41,690 nt of DNA from a virus (Duplodnaviria > Caudoviricetes): positions 1 through 41,690 of the IMG/VR virus record IMGVR_UViG_3300034052_000006, one strand, 5' to 3'. Positions within the stretch are counted from its first letter, which is position 1; every line of letters begins with the position of its first letter. The position numbers and the translations under genes were made by a program. This document shows, piece by piece, positions 10,035 to 27,500 of this stretch. A model generated the notes under the pieces. The model saw nothing but the letters and a program-made list of their open reading frames with translations, had not been told where the DNA came from and did not search any database.

Positions 10035-10069
10035 GCCCTAACCTAACCCCCACGAGTCCCTCGTTCAAC

Positions 10070-10180
10070 ATCGATTATGTACCATTTCATACCCGCCAAA
10101 GCAAATCTTTTAATTGATTCATACTCTTAACATTCAAGCTATCATCTCCTACACTATTCTTTCTTAATAATAGATAAGAG
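10070..10180. promoter_or_regulatory. AT-rich tract upstream of the late operon (late promoter or packaging region)
   Basis: Abrupt AT-rich stretch between the divergent arms. I could not assign -35/-10 boxes unambiguously. Confidence 0.45.
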
Positions 10181-10409
10181 AGGGTGGAGGCACTAACTCG
10201 CGGGATAGGGTATGGGCGGCGGTGGCGTGGCGACCACCCTCCGTGCGGAGAAGTCACTCCCCCGTACCCTACCGGGATAGGGGAGCCAGGGTGTCTGCGC
10301 CCCTCGCCGCTCCGAGCCGCTGGTCTTTTTCTCTCGGCCATGGATGTCCCCATCCATACCATCCTGGAACCCGCGCCAATGCTGGGCTTAGCTGTGGGAG
10401 CCTTCATCT

Positions 10410-10425
10410 TGTCTTAATTAAGACA
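10410..10425. repeat. Palindrome TGTCTTAATTAAGACA, copy 1
   Basis: Exact copy, ~93 nt upstream of the first early ATG. Confidence 0.97.
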
Positions 10426-10518
10426 GAATATTTTTCTAAGGGTATGGCAAAGCTATCACCGAATCCTAGGTTGGATGTTGTCGGGGAATGGTCCCCGCAA
10501 TCACCCAAAGGAGCCAAC

Positions 10519-11133
10519 ATGGCTACCAAGCAGATCTCCTCTAATCCCAAAGGCCGCCTGGAAGGCCTGACCTTCCATGCGTTCGTCAAGGGCGGCAAGG
10601 CCCCCGAGTCCCTCTTCCTCAAGTACGATGCTCCCGAGGTCCAGGAAGCGCCGGAGGCCTTCCTCTCCGTGTGGGGCTCCGGCAAGAAGCCCGGGCGGAT
10701 CATCCCGGCCTTGATGGCGTGGGCGATGGACACCCTGGGCGCCGTGGAAGGCCGGAAGGCCATCACGAGCGGCGGCATCGTGTCCGTCATGCAGAGGGTC
10801 GAGGCCCTGCACCCTGACACCGAGGAAGCCCTCAAGGCCTCCAATGTCCGCAAGGCCTACTCCAAACTGGACCGGGCCGCTACTTCCAGCCTCTCCGGGT
10901 CCTGGAGCCTGGCTCGCAAGACCTGCGGACTGGCTCCCGAATCGAAGGGTGGCCCCGCGCTCTCCGGTGGGATGGTTCAGTCCTGGATGAAACGGCTGGG
11001 CGAAGGCGGGTTCTCTCCCACGGTCACCCGCGAAGTGCTGGAAGGCCTCGCGGCGGCTGCGCTCAAGGCCGCTGATGGCCTCCCGAAGGCCGCCAAGGGT
11101 AAGAAGGCCGCCAAGGCCGCCAAGGCCGCCTAG
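10519..11133 (+). CDS. First early protein, with Lys/Ala-rich histone-H1-like C-terminal tail
   Basis: The AAGGAG RBS before ATG 10519 favours this start over 10222. Ends KAAKGKKAAKAAKAA and has its own terminator. Confidence 0.8.
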   Translation: MATKQISSNPKGRLEGLTFHAFVKGGKAPESLFLKYDAPEVQEAPEAFLSVWGSGKKPGRIIPALMAWAMDTLGAVEGRKAITSGGIVSVMQRVEALHPDTEEALKASNVRKAYSKLDRAATSSLSGSWSLARKTCGLAPESKGGPALSGGMVQSWMKRLGEGGFSPTVTREVLEGLAAAALKAADGLPKAAKGKKAAKAAKAA

Positions 11134-11156
11134 CACCCTTGCCAGCCCCGGGAATC

Positions 11157-11180
11157 AGGCCCCGCGAGAGCGGGGCCTTT
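11157..11180 (+). terminator. Intrinsic terminator
   Basis: AGGCCCCGC-GAGA-GCGGGGCCT-TT with a GNRA loop and a short U tail. Confidence 0.7.
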
Positions 11181-11209
11181 CCCTATGTCCACTCCCCTTC
11201 CATTCCCCT

Positions 11210-11225
11210 TGTCTTAATTAAGACA
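11210..11225. repeat. Palindrome copy 2
   Basis: Exact copy between the terminator and the RBS of the 11243 gene. Confidence 0.97.
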
Positions 11226-11242
11226 CCCTCACGAGGTATCCC

Positions 11243-11626
11243 ATGGCCCACCGAGAGACAATCATCCCGGCCGCGAAGGCCGTCTATCAGATGGTTCCAT
11301 CCATCGTCCGGGATAGCCTGGACATTCCATCCAAGCTGGATCTTTGGACATCCTGCATCGTCTACGCTGAGGGTGTCTTCCAAGGATGCGGCGAAACGGC
11401 TGAAGAGTCTGCCAATGGTCCACAGGCCGGACGCTGGCTCCGCGCTCGGGCCATCATGCTTCGGACGCTGGTAGCCTCTGGCGTCAGTCCCATCCAGGCC
11501 GTCCCAATGGTAGATGGCGATCTGTACAGCGCCGCCGATGATGCGATCATGATGGAACTAAGCAAGCGCCCCATCACCGTCATCCCTCGTGTCTTCTGCC
11601 CTGAAGCCCGGCTTACCTTGTCTTAA
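11243..11626 (+). CDS. Hypothetical early protein
   Basis: 127 aa with a GAGGT RBS. The TAA stop lies inside palindrome copy 3. Confidence 0.7.
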   Translation: MAHRETIIPAAKAVYQMVPSIVRDSLDIPSKLDLWTSCIVYAEGVFQGCGETAEESANGPQAGRWLRARAIMLRTLVASGVSPIQAVPMVDGDLYSAADDAIMMELSKRPITVIPRVFCPEARLTLS

Positions 11627-11634
11627 TTAAGACA
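11619..11634. repeat. Palindrome copy 3
   Basis: Exact copy; supplies the TAA stop at 11624-11626. Confidence 0.97.
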
Positions 11635-11657
11635 TGGACGCGCTACCCTTCACCCTT

Positions 11658-11685
11658 AAGGCCATGGCTTCCGCCGTGGCCTTTT
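11658..11685 (+). terminator. Intrinsic terminator
   Basis: AAGGCCATGGC-TTCC-GCCGTGGCCTT-TT. Confidence 0.7.
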
Positions 11686-11749
11686 CGCACTTCGCAGTGT
11701 GGAGTGCGTCCCTCTATATCATCGTTCATCTACTGCGATGGAGGAACAA

Positions 11750-11950
11750 ATGAGCCTAACCCAGGCCATCAAGGCCAGGATCGCCCATGAACTGTCCGAA
11801 CCGATCCAGGACACGCCCGAATGGCTCCAACATCAGCTGGACATCCTCCGGGTGGAGGCGCTCCGGGAGGATGCCCGAAGGCGGGACTTCACCCGCTGGG
11901 AATTGAAGGTACTGGATTCCAGGATTAGTACCTCTTTTCTCCCCTATTGA
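11750..11950 (+). CDS. Small hypothetical protein (66 aa)
   Basis: GGAGG RBS before ATG 11750 (MSLTQAIKARIAHEL...). The stop overlaps the -35 box of the next promoter. Confidence 0.65.
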   Translation: MSLTQAIKARIAHELSEPIQDTPEWLQHQLDILRVEALREDARRRDFTRWELKVLDSRISTSFLPY

Positions 11951-11976
11951 CATTCGGTGTTATGCTGTGGTATCAT
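11947..11976 (+). promoter_or_regulatory. Sigma70-type promoter for the AAA-vWA/replication operon
   Basis: TTGACA (11947-52), 18-nt spacer, TATCAT (11971-76) with an extended -10 TGn. Confidence 0.8.
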
Positions 11977-12009
11977 TAAACAATGACGGCACAGGGCTTG
12001 AGCCGCTCA

Positions 12010-12025
12010 TGTCTTAATTAAGACA
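12010..12025. repeat. Palindrome copy 4
   Basis: Exact copy that extends to 18 bp (ATGT...ACAT). Lies ~30 nt downstream of the inferred transcription start. Confidence 0.97.
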
Positions 12026-12090
12026 TTGAGGAATCAGGACCAAACCACACCCTGGCGGCATGGAGCCGCCTAATCCTTTGGAGGTCTTCA

Positions 12091-13419
12091 ATGACCCTCT
12101 CCCACATCTACGCCGTCCTCACGACAGCGACCCTCACTCCCACCGAGATGGAGCTAACACCCGCTCCCATGGAGGACGGAGCCCTCAACCCGGTGCCCAA
12201 GGAGATCCGGGCTTCCATGAGCGGCATGGGCATCGCCGCCCTGCGGAACCTCGCCTCGTACTACCTGGGCAAGAGCCCCCGGTGGAGCAAGATGACGAAG
12301 CCGGAGGTCATCGCTGCCATGGAGGCTGGCATGATCCCGCCCATGGCCCCGGCGGCTCCCGTCATCATGGCGGCCCCTACGGCTGCTGCTCCGATCTGGA
12401 CCACTGGCCCCGCTGTGGGCGAGAACCAGGGCTACTCGGTGGACGCTGACGGCAACGCTCTCCCGCCCGTCCTGGGGGATGGGCTGGATGAGTTCTTCAC
12501 CGGGCTCTGGCAGCCTGGGCCGCCCAAGAGCAACCTGAGCGCCGCTCAAGTTGTAGAGGCCCGGCGTCACATCTGGGACGCTGGAGCCATCGACCTGATC
12601 GCTGCGACCTGGGGTGCCCAGGGCCATCTCGGCGGCCTGAAGCCGATGGTGCTGACGGGGGAGGCTGGGGACGGCAAGTCTGCCTCCTGGCGATCCTTCG
12701 CTTGGCGGACGAACCGCCAGTACATGAGGGTCAGCCTGGGCCTGGGGACGAACCAAGCCGACCTCATTGGTCGGTGGATAGTCAAAGATGGGGAACTCTT
12801 CTGGGTGGATGGGGTCTTCCCCAAGGCCGCCAAGGCTGGGGCTCTCCTCAACCTGGAGGAGATCGACAGTGCCAACGATGGCATCCTCGCCAGCGTCTAT
12901 TCGGCCCTGGAGCCCACGGGTGACCTTCTTCTCAAGGAGAAGGATGGGGAGGTTCTCCGCCCGGCCCCTGGCTTCTGGCCCCTGGCGACTGCCAACAGCT
13001 TCGGCTCCGGCGATGAGTCGGGGCGCTACACTCACTCCCAGACGATGAGCGGCGCGCTGCGCTCCCGGTTCTGGGGGCACAAGCTGACCCGTCCCTCGCA
13101 GCACACCCTCCACCGCATCCTGAGCAACTGGGGATGCCCGGAAACCGTGGCCGATCATGTCTCCAAGGCCATGGAAGGGCTCCGGTCCCTCGTCAAGGAT
13201 GGTGCCATCCAGTCCACTGGCTTCGGCACCCGTGAAGCCATCGGCTGGGCTCTGGCCTCCATGGCTCTGGGGGACTACAAGAAGGGCTTCATGGTGGAGT
13301 GCGGAACCAGCCTCAGCGAGGGTGAGTTCACCATCGCGTGGGAGACGGCTTCGCGCTTCGTGTCGCAGGAACAACTCAAGCTGGCCCTGGCGGCCACGAA
13401 GAAGGGCGGTGTCGCATGA
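12091..13419 (+). CDS. MoxR/CbbQ/NorQ-type AAA+ ATPase with N-terminal Rho_N/HeH-like domain
   Basis: Walker A GEAGDGKS, DLIG..., Walker B LLNLEEID, sensor LATAN, Arg finger ALRSRF, and a GTRE motif. The N-terminal segment MSGMGIAALRNLASYYLGKSPRWSKMTKPEVIAAM is Rho_N-like. Confidence 0.9.
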   Translation: MTLSHIYAVLTTATLTPTEMELTPAPMEDGALNPVPKEIRASMSGMGIAALRNLASYYLGKSPRWSKMTKPEVIAAMEAGMIPPMAPAAPVIMAAPTAAAPIWTTGPAVGENQGYSVDADGNALPPVLGDGLDEFFTGLWQPGPPKSNLSAAQVVEARRHIWDAGAIDLIAATWGAQGHLGGLKPMVLTGEAGDGKSASWRSFAWRTNRQYMRVSLGLGTNQADLIGRWIVKDGELFWVDGVFPKAAKAGALLNLEEIDSANDGILASVYSALEPTGDLLLKEKDGEVLRPAPGFWPLATANSFGSGDESGRYTHSQTMSGALRSRFWGHKLTRPSQHTLHRILSNWGCPETVADHVSKAMEGLRSLVKDGAIQSTGFGTREAIGWALASMALGDYKKGFMVECGTSLSEGEFTIAWETASRFVSQEQLKLALAATKKGGVA

Positions 13420-15560
13420 GCGAGATCAAAACCAAGCGGTACGGTGGAGGCCTGGACGCCTTCCAGGCTGTGGCTGTTGGCCGCGCCATCACCCGGGACC
13501 GGATCGCCGGGATGATCCCCGGGGAAGAGGGCTCTCAGAAGGCCAGCCTGGGGATCGATGATGGGGGACGGGCCATGCTCTGCCTCCCCGCTGACGAGGA
13601 TCTGCCCCCGGGCTGTGGGATCGAGGTCGCCAAGGGGCTCATGGACCACGAACTGGCCCATGGGCGGTACACCCGGAACTCCACCATCAGGAACCTGCTG
13701 AAGGTTTCACCGGAAGGCGGAGCCCTCGTGAACATCATGGAGGACGCCCGGGTGGAGGCCTCCATGAAGGCCGATCTCCCCGGCACCCATGACACTATCG
13801 CCGCTCTGAACCGCTACGGCGGCCAGAAGGTCATCAAGGCCATGCAGGACTATCAGGCCAAAGGCGGAGTCATCTCCGACTTCGGGCGGCTGTCCACAGC
13901 CCTGGCCCTGGTGCATACCGCGCCGGAGCATATCGGTGAAGCCCTGGGCGACAACCCCAAGCTGCGGGAGTTCTTCGACCACATCAAGCCGTTCGTGGAC
14001 AAGGCGACCAAGGCTGCCGACAGCACTCAGGTCGAGCGACTGGCCCGGAAAGCCTGTGAAACGCTTGGCCTGGGCTGGCTCAAGGACGAAGAGCCCCCGC
14101 CCCCGCCTGAACCTCGTGGGGGTGGCGGCAAGAAGGGCGAAGGTGACGGCAAGGACAAGGACAAGGGCGAAGGCGACAGCGACAAGGAAGACCCTGAAGC
14201 TGAAGCTGAGGGAGGCGGAGAAGGCGAAGGCGAACCGTCCGGTGACGAGGCTGGCGAAGAAGGGATCAAAGGTTATGACCCCGGCGGCGGGGCGGATACC
14301 TTCAGCCCGTCAAAACTCACCGAGGAAGCCCTCAAGGACGCTTTCGCCAAGTCTGAGAAGGAAGCCAAGCTGGAACTTGCCAAGGCTTCGCTTGAAGCCA
14401 AGGCATCCAGCCTCTATGAGCCCATCTACAAGATCGCGCCCTCTTCCGGGAGGCACGACAAGGAGTACACCATCGGCCTTCGGGACTCCCACCGTGGCGA
14501 ATACAAGGACCTGACCGACAAGACCCTGCCTGTGGTCGCTGGGCTGAGGGCTTCCCTCAGGACGGCCCTGCTGGCGAAGACCCGGGACAAGATCATCCGG
14601 TCCCAGGAAGAGGGCGACATCGATGAGGGTATGCTGTATGCCCTGGCGACCAAGACCTCAGATCGTGTCTTTGCTAAGACAGTCCATGGCATCAAGACCA
14701 GCACCATCGTCACGCTGCTGGTGGACTGCTCTGGGTCCATGCACGGTAGCTCCATGGACAGGGCGACATTGGCTGCCACCGCATTGGCTGAGTCCCTCTA
14801 TGGGATCAGGGGCGTGGACTTCGAGGTTCTGGGGTTCACGACAGGCAGCTACCACGATGGCACCACTCGGTCAGCCTCCTCGAAAGCGGTAGACCCTTCA
14901 GAGTGGTTCAAGCGCATGAAGGAGATGACAGACCGGGCTGAGGCTGAAGCTCTCGCTGATCCCGAGAAGATGGCGGAACACCTGTCCCCAGAGGCACTCA
15001 CTTCCCTTGGGGTGGAGGGGACTTGGCACCGCACCGAGTCTCTCCTGCACATTGTCGCCGTCCCCTTCGGAACGAAGGACAAGCGGGAGTTGGCGTGCAT
15101 CGCGGGGCTCTACGCTTCCTCGAATAACCATGATGGCGAGGCCGTCCGCTGGGCGGCCCGTAGGTCGCTGGAGAGGAAGGCTGACAGGCGCATCCTCATC
15201 GTCATCAGCGATGGATACCCCGCTGGTTCCTATGACAAGTCGGACTCCGGCAGGATGAGCGGTGTCGTGCCCAAGTGGTACAAATCGGAAAGGGAGAGGA
15301 GCTACGAGAAGTTCGGCGATATGGGTCGTGGGACACAGCCCAACTATGTGGACCTGAAGTCCGCCATCAAGGTGGCCCGCGATCATGGAGTCGAAGTCTA
15401 CGGCATCGGCATCACGGGTGCTACCAGCGCGATCTATGAGTTCTACGGGGAGAAGAACGCGGTCGGCTTGACTGACAGCCGCGATCTCCCATCATGCTTG
15501 GTGGGGGAACTCAAGACCCTCTTAATCACTGGAGGCAGTCATGCCACGCGGGGACGGTAG
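13416..15560 (+). CDS. vWA-domain protein (CobT-like) with N-terminal HExxH zincin-like domain
   Basis: ATG 13416 overlaps the AAA stop (ATGA). Motifs: DHELAH...NIMEDARVE, an acidic Gly-rich linker, MIDAS LLVDCSGSM, HDGEAV and ILIVISDGYP. Confidence 0.9.
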   Translation: MSEIKTKRYGGGLDAFQAVAVGRAITRDRIAGMIPGEEGSQKASLGIDDGGRAMLCLPADEDLPPGCGIEVAKGLMDHELAHGRYTRNSTIRNLLKVSPEGGALVNIMEDARVEASMKADLPGTHDTIAALNRYGGQKVIKAMQDYQAKGGVISDFGRLSTALALVHTAPEHIGEALGDNPKLREFFDHIKPFVDKATKAADSTQVERLARKACETLGLGWLKDEEPPPPPEPRGGGGKKGEGDGKDKDKGEGDSDKEDPEAEAEGGGEGEGEPSGDEAGEEGIKGYDPGGGADTFSPSKLTEEALKDAFAKSEKEAKLELAKASLEAKASSLYEPIYKIAPSSGRHDKEYTIGLRDSHRGEYKDLTDKTLPVVAGLRASLRTALLAKTRDKIIRSQEEGDIDEGMLYALATKTSDRVFAKTVHGIKTSTIVTLLVDCSGSMHGSSMDRATLAATALAESLYGIRGVDFEVLGFTTGSYHDGTTRSASSKAVDPSEWFKRMKEMTDRAEAEALADPEKMAEHLSPEALTSLGVEGTWHRTESLLHIVAVPFGTKDKRELACIAGLYASSNNHDGEAVRWAARRSLERKADRRILIVISDGYPAGSYDKSDSGRMSGVVPKWYKSERERSYEKFGDMGRGTQPNYVDLKSAIKVARDHGVEVYGIGITGATSAIYEFYGEKNAVGLTDSRDLPSCLVGELKTLLITGGSHATRGR

Positions 15561-15819
15561 GGCCAACGGAAGCATCCTCTATGTCAGACCCAAGGTGCTT
15601 CGGCGAAGGGCCAGTCTGGCCTACTCCGCCAAGATCCTCCTCCGCACGGAGCGGGGCGTGAACTTCACGCTCTACGGGGAGCCGATGTCCCTGTCCGGTG
15701 ACCCGGAGCTTGACCGTAGGCTGGAGGAGACGAGGCTCCAGGCAATCGAAGCGTGCAACGACTACATCATCACCCTCAAGGAAGCGCGGGAAATGCCTTC
15801 CGAAGAGGACGAGTCTTAA
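15541..15819 (+). CDS. Hypothetical protein (92 aa)
   Basis: GGAGG RBS; overlaps the vWA end. The TAA stop lies inside palindrome copy 5. Confidence 0.65.
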   Translation: MPRGDGRANGSILYVRPKVLRRRASLAYSAKILLRTERGVNFTLYGEPMSLSGDPELDRRLEETRLQAIEACNDYIITLKEAREMPSEEDES

Positions 15820-15826
15820 TTAAGAC
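15813..15826. repeat. Palindrome copy 5 (14-bp core, 15/16 match)
   Basis: aGTCTTAATTAAGACA; supplies the TAA stop at 15817-15819. Confidence 0.95.
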
Positions 15827-15847
15827 ACTCCCGCCAAGCGAGGTAGC

Positions 15848-16018
15848 ATGACGCTCCCGAAGTGGCTGTCCAAACTGTCTGTCTCTTTCCGATGGAACAA
15901 CCTGGACACAGGCCGCTCCGTGAGCGTCAGCCTCGCATCTCTGAAAGCACTCTTCAACCTGGGCACGAAGACGCTGAAGCGTCAGCCCCCTCCCACAGGA
16001 GAACACCATGAGCAATAA
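15848..16018 (+). CDS. Small hypothetical protein (56 aa, below the track cutoff)
   Basis: GAGGT RBS, MTLPKWLSKLSVSFRWNNLDTGRS...HEQ*. Fills the gap and overlaps the next start. Confidence 0.55.
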   Translation: MTLPKWLSKLSVSFRWNNLDTGRSVSVSLASLKALFNLGTKTLKRQPPPTGEHHEQ

Positions 16019-16826
16019 CATCACCCTCTCCAAGGAAGACATCACCCTCACCATCGACATGAAAGACCCGGACGGCCTGGGTGCCGTGGTCCTCAAGGCC
16101 AGCGAACTGCTGATCCAGCGTACCGCTGAACAGAACAGGGCCTGGTACTGGGGCCGGGTCATCATCCCCATCGGGGTGGCCGCGCTCACGACCATCCTCA
16201 TCGCCATCGTCATGAAGGCTGGCTGGGTGGTGTACCTCGCGCCGACCTTGGCCTTGGTCGCTTGTGCCTACACCCTCAACCGCATGGTCCACCGTCACGC
16301 TCATTCCGCTGGCGAGACGGGTGCGCTGATGGAGAGCGTGAAAGAAGCCCTCGACAACTACAAGGTTGGCTTCCTGCTCAACCGCTTCCACCAGTACCGC
16401 GAAGAGACTGGCTTGCCGATTGGCCCGTCCATGTTCATGAATATGCTGCTCAGGGCTGACATCGATAGGGACATGGCGGGAAAGGCCAGCCATCTTCTCG
16501 GCAGCTTCATCTGGCCCGAGGCTGACCACAACGGTTTCAAGATGGCGATGCTGGAGGGCGAAGAGACGAAGGCCTACGCCGAGAAGCATGGGGTTGATGA
16601 CCTCGCCTCCAAGACCCACGACATCATCCTGTCCTGCAACTCCGCCTTCAACGCGGATCTGCTGGCTCTGTCCTCCGCCAGAGAAGCCATCAGCGCCCAG
16701 TACCCTGACAAGTACTGGATCAAGCTCCTGATTGACGGCCCTATCCCTGCCCCTGATGGCAAGGATCTCTCCGAGTACAAGGAACTTCACGACAAGTTCA
16801 GGGCTATCTCCATCTCGCTGAACTAG
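16008..16826 (+). CDS. Membrane protein with two predicted TM helices
   Basis: AGGAG RBS. Hydrophobic stretches VIIPIGVAALTTILIAIVM and WVVYLAPTLALVACAYTL, followed by a soluble helical domain. Confidence 0.75.
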   Translation: MSNNITLSKEDITLTIDMKDPDGLGAVVLKASELLIQRTAEQNRAWYWGRVIIPIGVAALTTILIAIVMKAGWVVYLAPTLALVACAYTLNRMVHRHAHSAGETGALMESVKEALDNYKVGFLLNRFHQYREETGLPIGPSMFMNMLLRADIDRDMAGKASHLLGSFIWPEADHNGFKMAMLEGEETKAYAEKHGVDDLASKTHDIILSCNSAFNADLLALSSAREAISAQYPDKYWIKLLIDGPIPAPDGKDLSEYKELHDKFRAISISLN

Positions 16827-16836
16827 GGGAGTCGGT

Positions 16837-17571
16837 GTGACAACCCTCCCCGCCAAGCAAGTCTATGCCCTGCTCAGGACGGCGGCTGCCTTCTCGCGGA
16901 GCGCCGAAGGGAAGAGGCTTCTGGCTGAGGTACCTTCCGAGTTGGTGTCTGAAGTGAACCACTTCATGCGCCAACCCGGAAGTGACCTTGCGATCCTTGC
17001 CCTGTGTTCGGTAGCCCTGAACTCAAGGCCTTTCCTAACACCGAATGGCGAGAGTCACCCACCCCTGCCTTTCCTTGATGCCATCCCTGACGGACCCCCT
17101 CCCCTTCTATTAGATAAAGTATCATCTTCTAATAGTGAGACTCTTAATACCCATACTTCTAATGGTCTTTGCTTAAAGCCAATGCTTTCTGGTGATTCAA
17201 AAGCACATGGTATTCTTTTGGGTAAGAGAGAAAGATCAAGGTCAAAAGAAACAAGTACCTTTTACAGTGAGGGTGAGGACCAACAGGCGACCATGATGGC
17301 GCTGCTCTCAAGCCGGGACTCGGTGTATGCCATGTCCCCGAACACAATCCTGGGCGAGGCGGCTTCCAGGTTCTGGAAGATCGCCAACCTCTGGCCCGTA
17401 GCCAAGAGGCCCATGATCCGCCGGGCCTCCCTGCTGTACCGCTCCTTCGTGGAGGAGCAGCAAGATGAAGTCAAGATACTCAGGACTGCCGCTGAGTATG
17501 TCGAGGAGACGGACCCAAAGTACCTCAAGCGGTTCGACCTCTGGCTAGAACAACAGCCTTGGCAGGGCTAG
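16837..17571 (+). CDS. Putative replication initiator (replisome organizer)
   Basis: The C-terminus FWKIANLWP..KR...AAEYVEETDPKYLKRFDLWLEQQPW resembles the FW..YP.K...KYI.HP.TWLNQ.RW end of phage initiators. The central linker is encoded by AT-rich repeated DNA. Confidence 0.65.
   Translation: MTTLPAKQVYALLRTAAAFSRSAEGKRLLAEVPSELVSEVNHFMRQPGSDLAILALCSVALNSRPFLTPNGESHPPLPFLDAIPDGPPPLLLDKVSSSNSETLNTHTSNGLCLKPMLSGDSKAHGILLGKRERSRSKETSTFYSEGEDQQATMMALLSSRDSVYAMSPNTILGEAASRFWKIANLWPVAKRPMIRRASLLYRSFVEEQQDEVKILRTAAEYVEETDPKYLKRFDLWLEQQPWQG
17100..17270. promoter_or_regulatory. Putative replication origin within the initiator gene
   Basis: AT-rich island with iteron-like CTTCTAWTRG at 17104, 17126 and 17156, followed by an A-rich tract. 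Confidence 0.55.
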
Positions 17572-17603
17572 AAGGCCCCTAGAAGGGGCGGAAAGGGTTT
17601 GCC

Positions 17604-17930
17604 ATGACCGATGACCTTGATGACCCGCCGGGAGGCGTTCTAGGCCCCATTGCGCCCAAGAAACGCTGGGCTGTGACCCGGGTGAAGGCACCCCTCAGGA
17701 AAGAGTGGAACGCTAACCCGATCTTCAAGGGGCAGGATAGCTGGTGCCCGAAGTGCGAACTCTGTGGGTACCGGGACTACCCGATCAACATGATGGATGG
17801 GCTGTGCTTTTCGTGCCACCTACACACGACCAACCCTGAGGAGTACGCTGCCTTCTGGGCTGGCTTCGATGCTGGCCGTGACCCCGACAAGGCGAAGAAG
17901 GAACGGATCAACAAGCTGGACTTTGACTAG
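17604..17930 (+). CDS. Cys-rich (Zn-binding) hypothetical protein
   Basis: CPKCELCG...CFSCH motifs; directly after the initiator. Confidence 0.65.
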   Translation: MTDDLDDPPGGVLGPIAPKKRWAVTRVKAPLRKEWNANPIFKGQDSWCPKCELCGYRDYPINMMDGLCFSCHLHTTNPEEYAAFWAGFDAGRDPDKAKKERINKLDFD

Positions 17931-17939
17931 GAGACAGCG

Positions 17940-18086
17940 ATGAGCAGACACGGATGGTCCGGCTTCTCGGAGGACGAGATCGAGGACATGGCTGGGCTGT
18001 GCCGGATCGACAAGAACGCAGAGAACGATGAGCCCGAGGAAGAAGATGTCTTAATTAAGACAACTGGGGAGGAGGGCGAGGAATGA
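17940..18086 (+). CDS. Small very acidic protein (48 aa, below the track cutoff)
   Basis: AGGAG RBS; MSRHGWSGFSEDEIEDMAGLCRIDKNAENDEPEEEDVLIKTTGEEGEE*. The stop overlaps the next ATG. Confidence 0.65.
   Translation: MSRHGWSGFSEDEIEDMAGLCRIDKNAENDEPEEEDVLIKTTGEEGEE
18047..18062. repeat. Palindrome copy 6 (intragenic)
   Basis: Exact copy; read in frame as VLIKT in the 17940 gene and lies just upstream of the 18083 RBS. Confidence 0.97.
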
Positions 18087-18292
18087 TCTGGGAACACGGG
18101 AACCCTGGCTCTGCCCAGGCGTGCAAGAAGGGGTGTCGGTGCCCCGTCTCGGACAACGGACACGGGAGAGGAATCGTTGGCGGATACGGGGGGACCGAGA
18201 AGGAACCCGCCTTCTGGATCAACGCTTCCTGCCCACTCCACGGCACGGTGTTCAAGGACAAACACAAGGGGAAGCCCGATGAAAAAGGCTGA
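18083..18292 (+). CDS. Small Cys/His phage protein (putative Zn-binding)
   Basis: NPGS..A...GCRCPVSDN.HG.G...FWI...CPLHG pattern, which I recognise from small phage hypothetical proteins. GGAGG RBS. Confidence 0.7.
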   Translation: MIWEHGNPGSAQACKKGCRCPVSDNGHGRGIVGGYGGTEKEPAFWINASCPLHGTVFKDKHKGKPDEKG

Positions 18293-18518
18293 CCTAAAGA
18301 AACTTTCCGCTGAGTTAAAGCGGCGGAACATCAAGCTCTTCGTGGAAGGCGAGTACCTCTGCGCGGTAGGCCAGCGCATGGACTTGTACTCCATGGTTTC
18401 CAAGCTGTCGGACAATGCCCGGCAGATCGCTGATACAATCACTTCTTCAGCCCCCGAGAGAGGAGGTTCTGGGCTATCCGTGATCGGTAAGGATCACATT
18501 TACATCACTATCAAATAG
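18279..18518 (+). CDS. Hypothetical protein (79 aa)
   Basis: Probable start ATG 18279 (MKKADLKKLSAELKRR), overlapping the previous gene. Confidence 0.6.
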   Translation: MKKADLKKLSAELKRRNIKLFVEGEYLCAVGQRMDLYSMVSKLSDNARQIADTITSSAPERGGSGLSVIGKDHIYITIK

Positions 18519-18534
18519 TCTTTGAGGAGACGCC

Positions 18535-19605: not shown

Positions 19606-21091
19606 CGTGTACAACCGATATGCCTGTCACACCATCCCGCAAGGGACTGCTGACTGGCACAGGCAGCGTGACCTTTGCCACTCTGCCAGCGAAGTTGCTG
19701 CCATGGTCGGAGCCTCCAGGTGGGAAACCCCCCAGCGGTACCTGGAGAAGATGAAGATCGCTGCGATGGCCCACCTCGCAGGGCGCGAAACCCCTGGCGC
19801 TGCGCGTGCTGCGCGTGAGTCCGCCATGGCACCCGACCCCAAGAACATGAAGCTGCGGCTCGGCCACCACATGGAAGAGTTCATGCTCAAGGAATACGCC
19901 ATCCAGAACGGCAGCAAGCGGGACATCAACATCATCTACCCTGGCGGCCTGTACATGGCGGTTATTAACCCCGCCGTCTACCTGCCGTCCCCGCCTCCTC
20001 CTACTGGCGGGAAACTGATGGCTAGTCTGGATGCGCTGAACTTCGACAGCATCCGCAACCTCCACGCAGCCTACCCGCCCGAGGCAGTCAACACCGAGGA
20101 CGGGTACTGCATGGTCCCAGCCTTGTCGATGAACCCGCACGAGGGCGGCCACTCGACTTCGATTGAACCTGCAACGATGGCCGCGCCCAAAGGGGCATGG
20201 TGTACCTACGGTCCCAAGACGGATGCCTTCATGACCTTCCACTGCCGGGTGATCGAGTGCAAAGTTGTCGATCCCAAGTACTTCAAGGGCGAACCCCTGG
20301 AGGAACACCTGTGGCAGGTCGAGGCCCAGATGCTGGCGACTGGGACCAAGAAGGCAACCCTGCTCTACATGGTGGGGACCAAGCTGCACACCTTTGACCT
20401 CGATGCCGATCCCGTGAAAGCCCAGTTCATCCTGGAAACCATCGAGTACATGGATCACTTGATACTCCACGACCGCAAGTACGACCCTGCTGAGGCACCC
20501 CGTCTTGTCGGTGGTAGCCCATCCGTCAGCGTGCCTCAGACCAAGGGCGACATCGTGGAGGCTACGCTGATCGACTCCATCCTGCTCCTGGATGGGGCGA
20601 AGGACGAGATCGACAAGCAGATCGATGAACTGAAGGACGATCTGAAGCGGACTCTTCGGGATCAGTTGCCCGATGGTGAAACCAAGATTGAGTGCCACCC
20701 TGAGGACGCGAATGGCTATGCGTCCTTGGCGATGGTGGCACCTGCCCCCAAGCCCAACCTTGAACGCGCCCTCGAACTGGCAGTCGGCGAAGACAAGGCT
20801 GCCTACGATGCCTTCGTCATTGCGGCTGGCACCATCACCCCCAAGCCTTACGAGCGTCTCCTCGTGAAGCCGAACGCGACCTCGCCAGTGGAGAAAGAAG
20901 CCACGAAGATCAAGCGGACACCGAAGAAGAAGATGCCCACGACCTGGGGTCCAGTCTCCTCTGTCCCAGAGTTGAGCCCAGAAGTGAGGGCTAAAGTGAA
21001 GGCTGAAATCTTTCGTCAGTACCAAGAATCCTCCGGCAGCGCGACAGCCGAACGCTGGCGCGAGATTGCGAAGGGGGTGAAGGGTGAGTGA
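19598..21091 (+). CDS. YqaJ/lambda-exonuclease family protein
   Basis: GGAGG RBS at ATG 19598. Motifs QGTADWHRQR, SASEVAAMVG, GHHMEE, MASLDA, VIECK and WQVEAQM..TG. Confidence 0.88.
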   Translation: MTSVYNRYACHTIPQGTADWHRQRDLCHSASEVAAMVGASRWETPQRYLEKMKIAAMAHLAGRETPGAARAARESAMAPDPKNMKLRLGHHMEEFMLKEYAIQNGSKRDINIIYPGGLYMAVINPAVYLPSPPPPTGGKLMASLDALNFDSIRNLHAAYPPEAVNTEDGYCMVPALSMNPHEGGHSTSIEPATMAAPKGAWCTYGPKTDAFMTFHCRVIECKVVDPKYFKGEPLEEHLWQVEAQMLATGTKKATLLYMVGTKLHTFDLDADPVKAQFILETIEYMDHLILHDRKYDPAEAPRLVGGSPSVSVPQTKGDIVEATLIDSILLLDGAKDEIDKQIDELKDDLKRTLRDQLPDGETKIECHPEDANGYASLAMVAPAPKPNLERALELAVGEDKAAYDAFVIAAGTITPKPYERLLVKPNATSPVEKEATKIKRTPKKKMPTTWGPVSSVPELSPEVRAKVKAEIFRQYQESSGSATAERWREIAKGVKGE

Positions 21092-21416
21092 CGCGCTCCC
21101 CTGTGAAGGGATCAAGATCAGCCGTTTCGATGGCATGAACGGGACCGAGGCGAAGTACGCCCAGTGGCTAGACCACGACAGCACCGTGTATCGGTGGTGG
21201 TTCAACCCCTTCGGGATGCGCCTCGCCAGGGCTACCCACTACCACCCTGACTTCCTCATCCAGAGGACCGATGGCTTGCTCGAACTCCACGAGGTCAAGG
21301 GGTTCTGGCGGGACGATGCCAGGGTGAAGGTGAAGATCGCCGCTGAGATGTACCCATTCCCCATCTCTATCGTGACCTACTCCAAAAAGGAGGGCTTCCA
21401 TGTCGAACCCGTCTAG
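21084..21416 (+). CDS. PD-(D/E)xK endonuclease (DUF1064-like)
   Basis: MNGTEAKYA...YHPDFLI...LHEVKGFWRDDARVKVK. Confidence 0.8.
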   Translation: MSDALPCEGIKISRFDGMNGTEAKYAQWLDHDSTVYRWWFNPFGMRLARATHYHPDFLIQRTDGLLELHEVKGFWRDDARVKVKIAAEMYPFPISIVTYSKKEGFHVEPV

Positions 21417-21657
21417 CCCCCCTGATCCGCTGCCGCTCTCTGAGAAGCTCACCCCCATCAAGTTCTACATCACCCCTCCTGAAAAGGATCTGGAGGGCAA
21501 GCTCTTACCTACCTGGAAGATCGGATTCTCTTACGAAGTCAACCTCAAGAAGTGGGGGTTTGTTGTGTATGCCCCCGGCACATGGTCCCAAGAGCAGGTG
21601 GTATCATATGCCCTAGAGTGGCAGAGGATGATCCTTAGCCACATGGAGAAACAATGA
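21400..21657 (+). CDS. Hypothetical protein (85 aa)
   Basis: AGGAGG RBS; overlaps both neighbours. Confidence 0.65.
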   Translation: MSNPSSPPDPLPLSEKLTPIKFYITPPEKDLEGKLLPTWKIGFSYEVNLKKWGFVVYAPGTWSQEQVVSYALEWQRMILSHMEKQ

Positions 21658-22331
21658 CATGGGACGCCAAAAACTTAGTGATGGATACACTGCTCGGCAA
21701 AGGTACATCCTACGCCACCGGGTTCTTGGACGGTGTATCGACTGCCCTTGCAGTCTTGAAGAAGACGAACGGGCAGCCGGACACGCTCGATGCTCTCGTT
21801 GCCGGGAGCGTAGACGAGGACGCTACAAGCAAGAAGTCGATACAGCAAAGGCTCTCATCGCAGCCCTCAGCGGTGGAAAGGAAGGGGGGTAAGTACTACC
21901 ACCGCTTAGCGCCATCCGATATGCCTTCTGTCGGGGCACGCTATGCCACCATCTGGAGGAAGCACCTGCTTGAAACTGGGCGGAACCCCGACAACATCGT
22001 GCTGATGCAGTGGGTGCTGAGCTTCGTAGACAGGGGGGACTACCTGACCTCCCATGAGCTAGTCCGTGCATACCGCACCATGCGTGCTGTCGGGGCCTCG
22101 CAGCCACCCGATGAAGTCATCGAGGTCGCAGACAGCATGGACTTTGTGCGGCTCCAGGCCGGGTTCTACTCGGCACTGAAGTTCATGGAGCGAGAAGGCT
22201 GGGCCATCCGTGAGCCCGTCATGGAACACGCACGGAGCTACGAAACCGAAACGCAGAACACAGGCGGGAGGTACTGCTTCCTCTTCAGAGTCACCGACCT
22301 GCCCATCTTCCCGAGGAAACCCCATGCTTGA
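21654..22331 (+). CDS. Putative tandem winged-helix DNA-binding protein
   Basis: The N-part TSKKSIQQRLSSQPSAVERKGGKYYHRL is HARE-HTH-like. The C-part VLSFVDRGDYLTSHELVR...GFYSALKFMEREGWAIRE...GGRYCFLFRVT is PadR-like. Confidence 0.55.
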   Translation: MTWDAKNLVMDTLLGKGTSYATGFLDGVSTALAVLKKTNGQPDTLDALVAGSVDEDATSKKSIQQRLSSQPSAVERKGGKYYHRLAPSDMPSVGARYATIWRKHLLETGRNPDNIVLMQWVLSFVDRGDYLTSHELVRAYRTMRAVGASQPPDEVIEVADSMDFVRLQAGFYSALKFMEREGWAIREPVMEHARSYETETQNTGGRYCFLFRVTDLPIFPRKPHA

Positions 22332-22776
22332 TGAAACCCTTGAACCCACCGTTGTCCTGCCCGGCAAGGTTGTCCGTGGTGCCACCTACATCGGCACCGT
22401 CACGAAACAGGCCACCAAGATGGGAACCACCACGGGTGGCACCCACTACATGAACTTCTCCATCACCATCCCCCATGTGGAGAAGGGGGAGAACGGCTAC
22501 CAGAAGCCCTTCTACATGGGCATCACCCTCTACTCGAAGGAGATCGATGGCTTCCGCTGCCGCCCTGGAGCGCACGATGTGGTCATGGTGTCCGGCCTTC
22601 GGACCCGGGCCAATGTCGGCAAGAACGGCATCGCCTATGTCGAAGGCGTAGGCTGGGGCGACCACATCGACATCATCAGCAAGAAGGGCGAGAAAGCCAC
22701 CGGGGTTGGAGGCTTGCCTGTATCTTCGCCCGTTCCGCGCAGGTCCGCTGCCGAGGAGGATGACATCCCATTCTGA
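22324..22776 (+). CDS. ssb: Single-stranded DNA-binding protein
   Basis: OB-fold-like strand pattern and the canonical acidic C-terminal tip EEDDIPF. GAGG RBS before ATG 22324. Confidence 0.8.
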   Translation: MLDETLEPTVVLPGKVVRGATYIGTVTKQATKMGTTTGGTHYMNFSITIPHVEKGENGYQKPFYMGITLYSKEIDGFRCRPGAHDVVMVSGLRTRANVGKNGIAYVEGVGWGDHIDIISKKGEKATGVGGLPVSSPVPRRSAAEEDDIPF

Positions 22777-22777
22777 G

Positions 22778-22793
22778 TGTCTTAATTAAGACA
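22778..22793. repeat. Palindrome copy 7
   Basis: Exact copy, 1 nt after the ssb stop and abutting the convergent terminator. Confidence 0.97.
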
Positions 22794-22795
22794 AT

Positions 22796-22825
22796 GAAAA
22801 GGCCCCGTGAGGGGCCTTTTCTTTT
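22796..22825. terminator. Bidirectional intrinsic terminator between the convergent arms
   Basis: GAAAAGGCCCC-GTGA-GGGGCCTTTTC-TTTT, with U tails available on both strands. Confidence 0.9.
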
Positions 22826-22831
22826 GTCTGC

Positions 22832-23374
22832 CTACGCCAAGGCGCAGGTCAAGACAAAGTGCCAGCCGTCCGTGTTCGCGCTACGCACGACACGGATTGC
22901 GTTGATACCACTCAGGTCTTCGAGACGGATCACGACAAGAGCGGAGTCAGCGATGGCAGTGGGGGAACCGAGGAGCGGCAAGGCTGCTGACGCAGCGTTC
23001 CGAACAAGGGAGAAGTCGGCCCAAGTGGTGCCCTGGTCCTTGGACACCTGCACCTTGAAGGTAGTCGTTCCAGGGCCAGCGCCGTAGATCTTGCCGGAGA
23101 TGAAGATGTCCGACACGAGGCTCTTCATGGAATGGAGAGGGCCTCCCCTGGTACCAGAGACACCATCGCTGGCACCGCACACATCAACCCGACCGTAGCG
23201 GTAGGAAGAAGTGATGACGCCCGTAGTGGTGCCGCCGCCGTTGGAATCCCACAGGACGCTATTCACGGAGCCACTGATGGCTGCGTCAATAGCCTCAACG
23301 AACATACGGGGAGGCACAACGGGAGCGTTCTTGGGGTGCTTGGAATGGCGGGGCGCGATGTTCGGGTAGGTCAT
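22832..23374 (-). CDS. Putative beta-sandwich virion protein
   Basis: AGGAG RBS; FKVQVSKDQGTTWADF Asp-box-like motif and AIRVV. Confidence 0.6.
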   Translation of the reverse strand: MTYPNIAPRHSKHPKNAPVVPPRMFVEAIDAAISGSVNSVLWDSNGGGTTTGVITSSYRYGRVDVCGASDGVSGTRGGPLHSMKSLVSDIFISGKIYGAGPGTTTFKVQVSKDQGTTWADFSLVRNAASAALPLLGSPTAIADSALVVIRLEDLSGINAIRVVRSANTDGWHFVLTCALA

Positions 23375-23382
23375 GGCTTCTC

Positions 23383-23745
23383 CTATGTGGTACGAAGGGT
23401 GAGATTGCAGACAACTGCTTCAGTGGTCCCAGTCTTCACCAGACGCAAGCCCGTGCAGGGCGGGAGAGGGTTGTACAGGTACACACCAGCGAGATTGCTG
23501 GAGGCCCCAGCCAGGGCACCAGTCGTAGCGACCGTGGGGCGGATGGCAGCGGTCCAGGTCTTGCCCCTGTTCAAGGAGATCTGAAGGCCGACCGTATCAG
23601 AAGAGTTCCCGGTGACTTCGAGGGCTGCACACGCGAACCCTGACGGGTCAATGCCATACACCGCGCCCGTAGCAGCAGTGACATCGGTGACTCCGGCTGC
23701 CACCGAGAAGGATGCAGACCGTGTGACGCAGAGTTCGGGGTTCAT
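23383..23745 (-). CDS. Putative beta-sandwich virion protein
   Basis: LQISLNRGKTW motif and GLRLV; Thr/Ala/Gly-rich. Confidence 0.6.
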   Translation of the reverse strand: MNPELCVTRSASFSVAAGVTDVTAATGAVYGIDPSGFACAALEVTGNSSDTVGLQISLNRGKTWTAAIRPTVATTGALAGASSNLAGVYLYNPLPPCTGLRLVKTGTTEAVVCNLTLRTT

Positions 23746-23964
23746 CTAGCTCACCTTCGGGGGGGCAGTGCGGTCGATCAGACCGAGGGTGGCGAGAAGG
23801 GCAGCCGCAATCGTCAGCAGCTTGGCCGCGAAGGCGACAACATTCTTGTCCATCTTGTAGACGCCGTAGGCTTCGATTGCCTGTTGACCAGCCAGGATGA
23901 GGGCACCCCACCAAGTCTTGGAGCCGAACAGGTTCCCGATGCTGATGTTCTTGAAAAAGTTCAT
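23746..23964 (-). CDS. Putative holin
   Basis: 72 aa with two hydrophobic helices, an SKTWWG motif and a GGAGG RBS; adjacent to the endolysin. Confidence 0.65.
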   Translation of the reverse strand: MNFFKNISIGNLFGSKTWWGALILAGQQAIEAYGVYKMDKNVVAFAAKLLTIAAALLATLGLIDRTAPPKVS

Positions 23965-23989
23965 ACCGCCTCCGTGTTGTTAGGATAAG

Positions 23990-24532
23990 TCAGGCTGGAG
24001 GAAATCTCCAGGCCCGGAAGAGCCAGCCAGTTAAGAAGACATTCTGAGTCGGGTCTTTCTCCGCGATAGCCCGGTACTTGTTCTCACAGATCTGCCCGAG
24101 GATGGACAGCATGGGCTCTTCGGGGATGGTATTCAAAACAGCGAGGGTCTTAGGCCCGAAAGACCCGTCTGTTTTTAGTGGAGTAGTTGCCTCGGCTGAG
24201 CCGTTTAACTCCTCTTGAACCCACTTAATAACACGGGCAGGGCCGAACTGGATCGACATATCGAACAGCTTCCGCGCCACCCTTCGGCTCTTCACCCCAT
24301 CGCAGAACCAGTAGTCCTTCCTGAGGATGTCCTTCGCAGTCTCAAGCGGCAGGTCTTTCATCTCGCCCATGTACCCATGCCTCCGTGCCGTGGCTTGGGT
24401 GACACCATACTTGGTCGGTCCGCCCTTGTCTCTAGGGTGGTGGACATACCCTCCCTCGTTCCGAAGGATGTAGTGCCACACGGGGTCATCGTATGGGAGT
24501 TCAGTCTTCACGGCTTCCTCCATGGTGAGCAT
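23990..24532 (-). CDS. Endolysin, glycoside hydrolase family 108 with PG_binding_3-like C-terminus
   Basis: ILRNEGGYVHHPRDKGGPTKYGVT catalytic motif; DGSFGPKTL and FLTGWLFR. Confidence 0.92.
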   Translation of the reverse strand: MLTMEEAVKTELPYDDPVWHYILRNEGGYVHHPRDKGGPTKYGVTQATARRHGYMGEMKDLPLETAKDILRKDYWFCDGVKSRRVARKLFDMSIQFGPARVIKWVQEELNGSAEATTPLKTDGSFGPKTLAVLNTIPEEPMLSILGQICENKYRAIAEKDPTQNVFLTGWLFRAWRFPPA

Positions 24533-27500
24533 CAGGTACCAAACTTCTTTCTCATGCTGTTCAGGTTGGCCTTGTTCTTCCCACTGGCCGAGCCGCTGCC
24601 GCCCATGGAGTCAATCTTCCGGTTGAGCTTGCTGTTGTCCAGGCGGAACTCACTCTCCCCGCCGACAACCTTGAGGTACTCATTGAAGTCCTTGGCCTTC
24701 TCGGCGAACAGCTTCCGCTGCTCAGCCATGTCCTTCTTGATGGACTCGCGCTCCTTCGGGCTGGCCGTCTTGGCTTCATCTGCAAGCTCAGCGAGATGCT
24801 CACCGAAGTCCTTGAGGATGGAGTCACGAGCGTCCTTGAGGTTCCCCCGTAGCTCAGCGATCTTGTACTCACGAGTCTCTGCGGTGGTAGAAACACCGAA
24901 GGCCTTGAGCCCACGCTGGATGGGGGTGTACGGGATCTTCTCCCCGTTGGCCCGGAACTTACCCTCCACGGAACGGGCGATGGCCTTGGCGAAGTCAGGC
25001 ATGGTGTTCTTGTAGTCCTTGCCAGCCTGACCCGTGATGCCCTCGGCCATGTCGGTCACGGTCCCACCGAAGGCCCCGCCCACCACGCTGAGCGCAGCTT
25101 CGGGGATAGACGCATTGGGCTTGATGAAGAAGAAGTCGGACATATTGAAGCTGGAGCCGATGTCTAGCCCGATGATGTTGAAGCTACCATCAAAGACAGC
25201 ACGCCCCATCCGCTCCCCCAGGTGGTGCATAAGGAATCGCCGTGCCGTCTCCTCCCAGTCATCCCACTCATCGCCCAGCATCTTCGACAAGCCGTAGCCC
25301 AGGACGCTCATGGTGACGCCCAGGTAGGCCGAGCCCTTGAGCCCAGCCAGCGCAGCCGTCACAGCCCAGCCCTGAACGACAGGGGTGAAAGCCTCGATGG
25401 TCGCTTGCTTCTTGCTCATGCCACCCTTCATGAGTTCCTCACGGGCCTTGGAGGCAGCCGTCAGGAACGCAGCAGCGTAGTCGATCTGGAAGCTCTTGAA
25501 CTGGAGAGCAGGGCCGAGCAGGGTAGCCGTGGGCATACGCTCGACTCCAGCCCTTGAGGACCGACCTTGCTGGTTGTGGACGCGATCAACCTGCTCCTCG
25601 GAACGCTTGGTGGAAAGCTCCCAGTTTCCGATGGTGCTGGGGTCAACCTTGCCGTCCGAGTGGCCGGAAGTGTAGCTGAGCAGGAAGTCGGTGATGAATG
25701 TCCTGCGCCTGTTGGCCGACTCCATCGGGCTGGACAGGGCAGACGAGTACCCTACCACCTTGCGGTAGGCTGCCTCCGCCTTGCCCGTCACGAAGCGGTT
25801 GTCCACCAGAGCATCAACGACATCCTCAACAAGCTGGTTGTCGAAGGTGCCCTGCGACTCAGCGAGAGCAATAGCCTGTTCCAGGGCTGCGATCACCTTG
25901 GCCGGGGTGCCCAGCTTGTGGGTGTTCACGACCTTCGTGACCATCTCGACTCCAGCCTTGGAGAGCTTGCCGTGCCCATCCAGCATGGTGGCGTGGTGCC
26001 CCTTCAGGTTGGAGGCGAAGTCACCCCACAACTGGCGGTAGGCCAGCTTCCCTGCGGTGTCATGAATGTCAGCCAGTGTCTTCTTCGAGATCGTCCCGTC
26101 CTTGACCGACTCCATGTAGAGCAGCTTGAACAGGGGCCACTCCTGCGAGTACCGCTGAAGGTGCTGCTGGGGGATCGAGTAGAGGAACTTCAAGCCAAGG
26201 CGCATGACAACCGTGAACCCCTTGGCCCAGGTCACAGCCGTCTCGGTCACAGAGGGCGGGGTCACGAGGTAGTTCCAGTACTCCCTGGCAACCTTCGGGA
26301 TGTTGGTGCCAGCGGCCTCGCTGTTGACTTGGGTTAGAGCCTCGCTGATGTCGCCGTAGTGTTCGCGCATGGCGACCTCACGGGCCAGCGACCGGGCGTA
26401 GTGGGAGTCCACCATCGCGCCCTGGTTGCTCATGCCGTTCACGCCCGTCCGATGCTTCAACCTGCCAGCGAAGGCGTGGTGAGCAGCCGACTGGGCGTGG
26501 TTGGCGAGGTAAGAAGCCACTTCATCCTGGACCATGCCGGGGAAAGCGGTGGCGATGAAGTCGTTCCTGGAAGCCTCGTCAGGGAACACGGTGTCCACGA
26601 CAGCAGCGATGGAGTCCAGGAAGTCGGCATCGTACCCGCTGAAGTTGCTGGCCGCCTTGCCCAGGTAGGTCGCGCTCTCACGGTTGGCCTTGGCGACAGG
26701 CTCGACAGTCACGCGCCCCTTGAGCGCAGACTTTCCGTCCCAAGCAAGCTCCTTCTGGACCCGCTCATGGACTGCGTTCTTCATGTCCGACTCGGTGACG
26801 CCAGTGACATAGCCGAGGCTACGGGTCACACTGGTCCCGTCAGCAGCCTTCTCGGTGTACAGCACCTTCGACACGGCAGCCGGGTTCTTGGAGCTAAGCT
26901 CACCCACGGGGATCTTCTCGGACTTGGCGAGGAGAGCCACCTGATCCCGAAAGTCGGCATCGTTGTAGTAGCGGATGACACCGACAGGTTCAGCTACCCC
27001 GGCCCGGAAGATATGGGCCTCGTGGTCGCCGAAGCGGATGAAGGGGACATAGCCCTTGTTCTCGTTCAGCTTCGCCTTGAGCTTCTTGAAGGCTTCACGG
27101 GCAGCCTTGATAGCCTTGGACTTGGCGGCATCAGACATGGAGGACCGTTCGACCACGGAAGAAACTGTCTTAATTAAGACATTCTCTGCCACATCGGACA
27201 GCTTGCCCTTGGCCTCCTCGTAGTACCGGAGCCGCTCCTTGTAGTGTTCGATCATCTGATCGTTCCACTTCATCTTGTCCTTGAGCGCCTTCAGGCCAGC
27301 AGGTGTGTTGAAGCTGACGCCAGTGCCGATCACATCCCCGGCTGCGTTCTTGATCTCGAACTTAGACCAAGCGTTCATTGCCACCGAAATGGCAGCTTGC
27401 TCACGGTTGGTGAGCGCAGACCAAGACCGGGCGAGGTTGGCCTCTTCGCCAACCACTTGACGGGTCTTAGCCATCCAGTCCCGGGTGGCGCGGTTCAGCT

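Follow-up and report, generated by a model that had tools for sequence, protein, structure and literature searches.

A dispersed, nearly invariant 16-bp palindrome in an uncultured sediment podophage as a candidate operator array

The virus record IMGVR_UViG_3300034052_000006 represents an uncultured sediment phage, a novel podophage of ~42 kb, in which the 16-bp palindrome TGTCTTAATTAAGACA recurs at eight or nine dispersed positions; the window analyzed here is the whole record, 41,690 nucleotides in length. The reading favored, to which we assign a probability of about 0.55, is that a single dimeric protein encoded by the phage uses these copies as its operators and, as a repressor or roadblock, shuts down the presumed early region. 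The symmetry of the 16-mer, its near-invariance, and its link to gene boundaries suggest a duplex site for a dimer. Dispersed invariant dyads in phages that lack an integrase have been unexplained since their report in the Cluster O mycobacteriophages, and the present genome is compact: it has eight or nine sites, about 18 genes on the + strand, and two candidate binders, the products of genes 10519 and 21654. Which protein binds such an array, and whether the array serves regulation, partition, or protection, is thus approachable with synthetic oligonucleotides and a handful of expressed proteins, phage culture not being needed, and a validated protein-site pair would amount to a new orthogonal 16-bp operator.

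Copies, placement, and sequencing support

The window scan finds the word exactly at 10410, 11210, 11619, 12010, 18047, 22778, and 27166 (seven copies), with an eighth at 15812 that matches at 15 of 16 positions, in full agreement with the original prediction from which this analysis started. A ninth, weaker site at 14666, TGTCTTTGCTAAGACA, follows the pattern TGTCTT-N4-AAGACA: it keeps both 6-bp arms and changes three of the four central bases. The near-invariance first claimed for the word, center included, thus stands for the eight stronger copies, seven of which are exact, but does not extend to the 14666 site, whose altered center shows that the middle of the palindrome is not strictly invariant. 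At up to three mismatches the window holds nine matches, compared with a shuffle mean of 0.03, and nine was reached in none of 100 shuffles; allowing four mismatches adds no further site in the window. The ~25 kb of the record outside the array are free of copies in these scans, and the AT-only core was correctly expected to occur well under once by chance, as the predicted count of TTAATTAA in the window is 0.001-0.1 (Markov orders 0-3) and eight are seen, all eight falling within palindrome sites. The palindrome word is the only over-represented 10-14-mer of the window. It also coincides with a PacI site, which was judged incidental.

The nine sites, given without strand, are as follows.

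10410..10425, site 1: exact; lies between genes, 93 bp upstream of gene 10519, in the spacer from which terS and the + strand region diverge
11210..11225, site 2: exact; intergenic, 17 bp upstream of the start of gene 11243
11619..11634, site 3: exact; provides the TAA stop of gene 11243-11626
12010..12025, site 4: exact, and an 18-bp palindrome when its flanks are included; 65 bp upstream of the AAA+ gene
14666..14681, weak ninth site: TGTCTT and AAGACA arms around a TGCT center; within the VWA gene
15812..15827, site 5: 15/16; gene 15541-15819 takes its TAA stop from it, and the next start follows 20 bp later
18047..18062, site 6: exact; 3' end of the small open reading frame 17940-18086, in which the site encodes VLIKT, 20 bp before the start at 18083
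22778..22793, site 7: exact; 1 bp past the stop of the SSB-like gene that closes the + strand region, with a bidirectional terminator 2 bp beyond
27166..27181, site 8: exact; in the gene for a virion protein of 2450 residues (24532-31884, - strand), residues 1569-1573, VLIKT

Seven of the eight strong sites are intergenic or lie at most 40 bp from a gene end, compared with 12% of positions overall (P ~3e-6); when the weak site is counted, seven of nine are at gene boundaries (P 1e-5, or ~4e-5 within the + strand region). Seven of eight likewise fall within the + strand region, which makes up 30% of the record (P ~1e-3). Sites 2, 5, and 6 end 17-20 bp ahead of a start codon, sites 3 and 5 supply stops, sites 1 and 7 bracket the entire + strand region, and sites 1-4, spaced by 800, 409, and 391, bracket three single orphan genes. 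Measured from the spacer between terS and gene 1, the nine sites lie at ~0.2, 1.0, 1.4, 1.8, 4.5, 5.6, 7.8, 12.6, and 17.0 kb. At site 8, the strong copy deep within a coding sequence, the word uses the rare codons TTA, ATT, and ACA (TTA accounts for 20 of 981 Leu codons, and for 4 of 173 in this virion gene), and multiplying the frequencies of the five codons gives 9e-5, a post hoc figure; the DNA word therefore appears to have been imposed on the protein.

Support for the sites as real sequence comes from contigs of eight sequencing runs compared with window positions 9500-28500. Runs X5, X7, and X8 are not flagged as possible sources of the record, X1 and X2 are possible sources, and the 2020 sediment runs may belong to one campaign. 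An X5 contig (record positions 10241-12146) crosses sites 1-4 with 0 differences; site 5 is crossed by X7 and X8 contigs and site 7 by X5, again with 0 differences. Contigs from X1 and X2 span sites 1-6 and site 8, the listed differences all lying outside the sites, so that sites 6 and 8 are covered by possible-source runs with differences elsewhere. No contig joint occurs at any palindrome site in the eight runs, although contigs drop rare variants. An adapter or assembly artifact is ruled out by these contigs from other runs, which cross the sites unchanged and jointless. As strain variation is low, the unchanged sites give no evidence of selection. Two departures of X2 contigs from the window are possible strain variants: a divergence inside the YqaJ gene (20582-20828) and the omission of 87 bases in the large virion gene (28244-28332).

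A proposed phage-encoded repressor and candidate binders

The genome is organized as two convergent regions. The - strand carries a podovirus-type module of terminase, SU10-type portal and adaptor, and N4-gp56-type capsid, together with the 2450-residue virion protein, tail fibers, and a GH108 endolysin. The + strand region (10519-22776, about 18 genes, ~30% of the record) contains orphans, a CobS-like AAA+ and CobT-like VWA pair, a probable initiator, a YqaJ exonuclease, a resolvase-like nuclease, and an SSB-like protein. Features bearing on the repressor reading are these.

10519..11133, + strand: lead candidate binder; first + strand gene, 204 residues with a Lys/Ala-rich tail, between sites 1 and 2
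11157..11180, + strand: GC-rich terminator-like hairpin after gene 10519, with a short T run, ~30 bp before site 2 (read by eye; absent from the terminator scan listing)
11947..11976, + strand: sigma-70-like promoter, the strongest of the region (TTGACA-18-TATCAT, 11/12, with a TG extension)
12091-13419 and 13416-15560, + strand: CobS-like AAA+ and CobT-like VWA pair, from family matches, downstream of site 4
16837..17571, + strand: probable replication initiator, with a C-terminus common to its counterparts in the related phages G001 and G002
21654..22331, + strand: second candidate binder; orphan of 225 residues with a winged-helix-like C-terminal half
22796..22821, no strand: bidirectional terminator-like hairpin at the meeting point of the two convergent regions

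In the mechanism proposed, the product of gene 10519, encoded between sites 1 and 2, would be made first and accumulate. Its dimer would bind all 16 bases through a DNA-binding domain of the ParB/KorB type that lacks a sliding-clamp domain. Once bound, it would damp its own gene and the AAA+/VWA unit, site 4 lying just past the best promoter (34 bp downstream of its -10 box), as well as the units that end or start at sites 3, 5, 6, and 7; such damping might time an early-to-late switch or hold a carrier state. The reach of a binder without a CTPase domain would be local, and this would account for the large number of sites. Each of the 16 bp of sopC matters for SopB binding (PMC3597684), which offers a reason for the almost invariant center. 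A terminator-like hairpin lies ~24 bp past site 3, and the right arm of site 5 doubles as a weak -35-like box (AAGACA-16-TAGCAT, 8/12). Of the silencer, roadblock, and stoperator-like roles originally suggested, the first two fit the gene-boundary placement; the comparison with stoperators is less apt, as those elements are asymmetric and oriented.

Within the repressor reading, 10519 is the leading choice of binder at somewhat under even odds; a protein other than the two candidates ranks next, as a doubtful choice, and 21654 after it, as an unlikely one. A full profile scan, which covered 10519 only, found one full-length homolog, P0029, encoded on a 3.8-kb contig, at 27-30% identity and with the basic tail in common, whereas word-index homolog searches with 10519 and 21654 recovered only the queries themselves. 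In the Atlas, 10519 falls among unnamed viral clusters (0.90-0.91), the nearest named family being DUF3102 (0.81). It is a speculative and unlikely extension that 10519 represents a widespread, unnamed family of clamp-less DNA-binding domains of the ParB/KorB type encoded by phage first genes, reading a private parS-like 16-mer as a master off-switch, or as a shield, for the third of the genome that enters first in a podophage without an integrase. If true, this family would be the missing binder for Cluster O-type palindrome arrays.

Several observations weigh against a repressor acting from these sites. With relaxed settings, a promoter scan placed candidates close to no more than three sites, and one of these candidates is on the - strand; + strand promoter-like sequence occurs near sites 4 and 5 only, no strong one is overlapped, and nothing at 8/12 or better was found near sites 2, 3, 6, 7, 8, or 14666. 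Site 8 in particular lies deep within a late gene and has no promoter context. It was on these grounds, too, that the Cluster O authors thought control of transcription initiation unlikely for their array (PMC4351075). The + strand region is itself only presumed to be an early replication and recombination region, the labels early and late being taken from gene content. Nor was a binder identified. For 10519, the two ParB-HTH structure rows in the Atlas are below threshold, neither Pfam nor PHROG gives a match, and hidden Markov models (HMMs) of the DUF3102 and ParB-HTH types are also negative. For 21654, the Atlas structure rows are mostly winged-helix (Fur, HxlR/PadR, GntR, IclR) and all below threshold, with no homolog found and both the PadR HMM and other family searches negative. 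Single-sequence AF2 models of 10519 and 21654 have pLDDT values of 37 and 40 and are unusable, so that a fold search of the PDB (no match at E 0.001) is uninformative. Finally, no comparable palindrome and no 10519 homolog turned up in seven distant relatives that share the virion module.

Family searches of the record detected no integrase, serine resolvase, XRE repressor, or polymerase, the dedicated searches thereby upholding the initial observation that no integrase is seen in this possibly incomplete record. Nor does the record have an HTH_3 or PHROG repressor match, and six-frame searches for ParB_N, HTH_ParB, and CbiA/ParA returned no match at E values up to 1-5, with controls responding. 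Sliding is not expected where no ParB_N domain is detected. The sole ATPase found in the + strand region is the CobS-like AAA_5 protein. CheckV puts completeness at 59%, and the record is classed as linear and may be incomplete. Its ends (1-2000 and 40748-41690) lie in paralogous tail-fiber frames, the left one with collagen-like repeats, and the missing part probably lies within this fiber cluster. Relatives with the same virion module are 37-40 kb long, and in one of them the terminase is divided between the two ends of the record; fiber frames at both ends and relatives of this size suggest that the record is nearly complete.

Two neighboring genes have further features. The AAA+ protein of 12091 carries an N-terminal extension of 180 residues with a possible small helical nucleic-acid-binding motif, seen by eye and without a family match. 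In the initiator gene, an internal AT-rich patch contains no palindrome copy; a ribbon-helix-helix reading of the protein's C-terminus was dropped once this part had been matched to initiator-like proteins. Two AT-rich patches of the window resemble each other, one before terS (10098-10177) and one in this probable initiator gene (17104-17183), and the related contig L017 has an AT-rich patch (157-236) in the corresponding position before terS; it comes with a short palindrome, CTGTCTATAGACAG, whose outer TGTCT/AGACA arms match those of the 16-mer.

Other explanations and the word in other genomes

As far as sampled, the array is private to this phage lineage. The exact word has 16 single matches in IMG/VR and none in 50,697 GenBank phage records at E values up to 10, a limit at which other 16-base matches were reported; no dispersed array of it was found in the other phages and genomes searched, and no paper containing it in the literature searched, subscription journals and supplements lying outside that search. 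The Cluster O report was the one like case that the literature searches turned up. Among 68 phage loci of at least 10 kb, no multi-copy perfect palindrome was found save one TA run. A few of the loci matched by the word have extra copies at up to three mismatches (two in L011, three in L014, five in L100, and several pairs), which were put down to a low-GC background or to tandem repetition. Scans with proteins against viral contigs and metagenomes recovered L017 and otherwise phages at no more than 38-46% capsid identity. L017, the only close relative (terL 78%, capsid 81%), covers the head region, which is free of sites in the window too, and in the near-whole records G001-G007 no dyad with 6-bp arms occurs in more than two copies. 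Separately, the Pyrinomonadaceae contig L100 has nine tandem TGTC-N8-GACA boxes at 780-1007 with a period of ~19 bp, the exact 16-mer included, between replication-module genes (one DnaC-like by eye), which places the palindrome geometry in an iteron-like setting. The early region of the relative G003 (L204:13100-17270) contains successive pentapeptide-repeat genes whose 5' ends are repeated.

Entry or protection marks are an unlikely alternative to the repressor reading, in which the first-entering genome end is crowded with sites, and a protein that is ejected or made immediately early binds these to anchor or shield the DNA. The fall in site density from the terS/gene-1 spacer, the emptiness of the other ~25 kb, and the lack of promoter context at site 8 would suit such marks, but the physical end of the genome is a presumed one, family searches found no DNA-binding domain in the 2450-residue protein, and the strong tendency of the sites to fall at gene boundaries points toward transcription, though the tolerance of such positions for a 16-mer could also explain it. 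Also improbable is a dispersed centromere, with the copies as ParB-type loading sites that partition an extrachromosomal prophage. The word is a 16-bp inverted repeat like chromosomal parS and sopC of F; it had been said to share the geometry of parS and not its sequence, which understates its likeness to the parS printed in PMC3597684, as a hand count finds agreement at 10 of 16 positions (for a palindrome, the chance of this is ~3%, post hoc). The absence of an integrase or resolvase and the weak ParB-HTH rows of 10519 also favor a centromere. The centromere-like option of the original prediction is nevertheless undercut by the six-frame searches, which found none of the ParB and ParA families in the record; placement at gene boundaries is not required of loading sites, and the linear record may be incomplete, yet both of its ends lie in fiber frames. 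Much the same low probability attaches to recruitment or titration of a host protein, whether a regulator, a ParB, or a nucleoid factor. No convincing phage binder was found, and some GC-rich genomes (Acidobacteria, Binatia) carry one exact copy between genes; against this, GTDB genomes hold 81 exact stretches in 596 Gb where ~139 would be expected for uniform DNA, only one metagenome-assembled genome occurs twice among the 80 stretches listed (with near-identical flanks), and the nine loci inspected have no regulon context in common. An exact scan would, however, miss a host motif that is degenerate.

Recombination sites flanking exchangeable gene cassettes are a markedly less probable explanation. 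Three single orphan genes are bracketed by sites 1-4, deletions between the Cluster O repeats are reported in the part of that paper cited (PMC4351075), and the relative G002 has cassette-like junctions in the corresponding region; however, no recombinase was detected, no joint was found at the sites in the eight runs (with the same proviso about rare variants), the flanks are shared over two or three bases at most, a core that is symmetric cannot set an orientation, and recombination at site 8 would disrupt an essential gene. The junctions of G002 (L202:10082-18017), a distant podophage, are 9-12 dispersed repeat pairs ending CCTAAC / CGTTAGG between small early-region genes, and resemble integron attC cassette junctions. 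Least probable of all are hairpins in RNA or single-stranded DNA, serving as processing sites or N4-type promoters. Every copy, that at 14666 included, can form a 6-bp stem with a 4-base loop, and the positions fall between genes, but the fold is weak (about -3 kcal/mol as DNA), the loop is self-complementary in all eight copies though a hairpin needs no such loop, and searches found neither an Rfam match nor an RNA polymerase family match in the large virion protein.

Comparison with known systems

Sites of a similar kind are used in several other systems, to none of which the array belongs on the features tested. In contrast to replication iterons, which are tandem, evenly spaced copies at the origin, in the initiator gene or next to it, the sites are 0.4-4.7 kb apart and not tandem, with none in 16837-17571. 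Inverted repeats of phiC31 and dispersed centromeres of N15 are further leads, for which no describing passage was found. Stoperators occur in temperate phages with a known repressor. Those of Cluster A are asymmetric, oriented with transcription, located in and between genes, and proposed to stop transcription (PMC4351075); the phage sites are similarly dispersed inside and between genes, but they are perfectly symmetric, and no repressor or integrase was detected. The ParABS systems, with which the word shares its 16-bp inverted repeat (PMC3597684, PMC7333895), differ in that no ParA or ParB was found and in that the phage sites favor the gene boundaries of one region. KorB silences genes of plasmid RK2 from 16-bp OB operators, both promoter-proximal and distal, and requires its CTPase clamp domain and KorA (PMC11790492); the 12 OB sites of RK2 are known here from the title of a reference within that paper. 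A 16-bp site dispersed in about ten copies makes KorB a model for how the array might act, but no binder of the ParB_N/ParB-CTPase family was detected in the phage record. By analogy, the array may work like the KorB/OB system or like stoperators.

The closest counterpart is found in the Cluster O mycobacteriophages (Corndog), whose genomes lack an integrase and parAB and contain a 17-bp dyad 34 times, its arms being invariant; 14 of the 34 are intergenic, the dyads are absent from the host and from other phages, and neither their binder nor their function is explained (PMC4351075). The array described here, which the original prediction called an unrecognized network, therefore has a published precedent. 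Both combine many dispersed copies whose arms start with TGT around an AT-rich center, intergenic as well as coding positions, and a density that rises toward one genome end; in both, no integrase or parAB is detected, and the word is private to the lineage. They differ in sequence, in length (16 versus 17 bp), and in number (8-9 versus 34 copies), and the present phage has a podovirus-type virion module and sites that keep more closely to gene boundaries (7 of 8, against 14 of 34 intergenic in Cluster O). The Cluster O array is conserved across relatives, whereas no close relative here covers the sites. With four of the five features tested in common, the array is a further case of the known, unexplained pattern of Cluster O-type dyad arrays.

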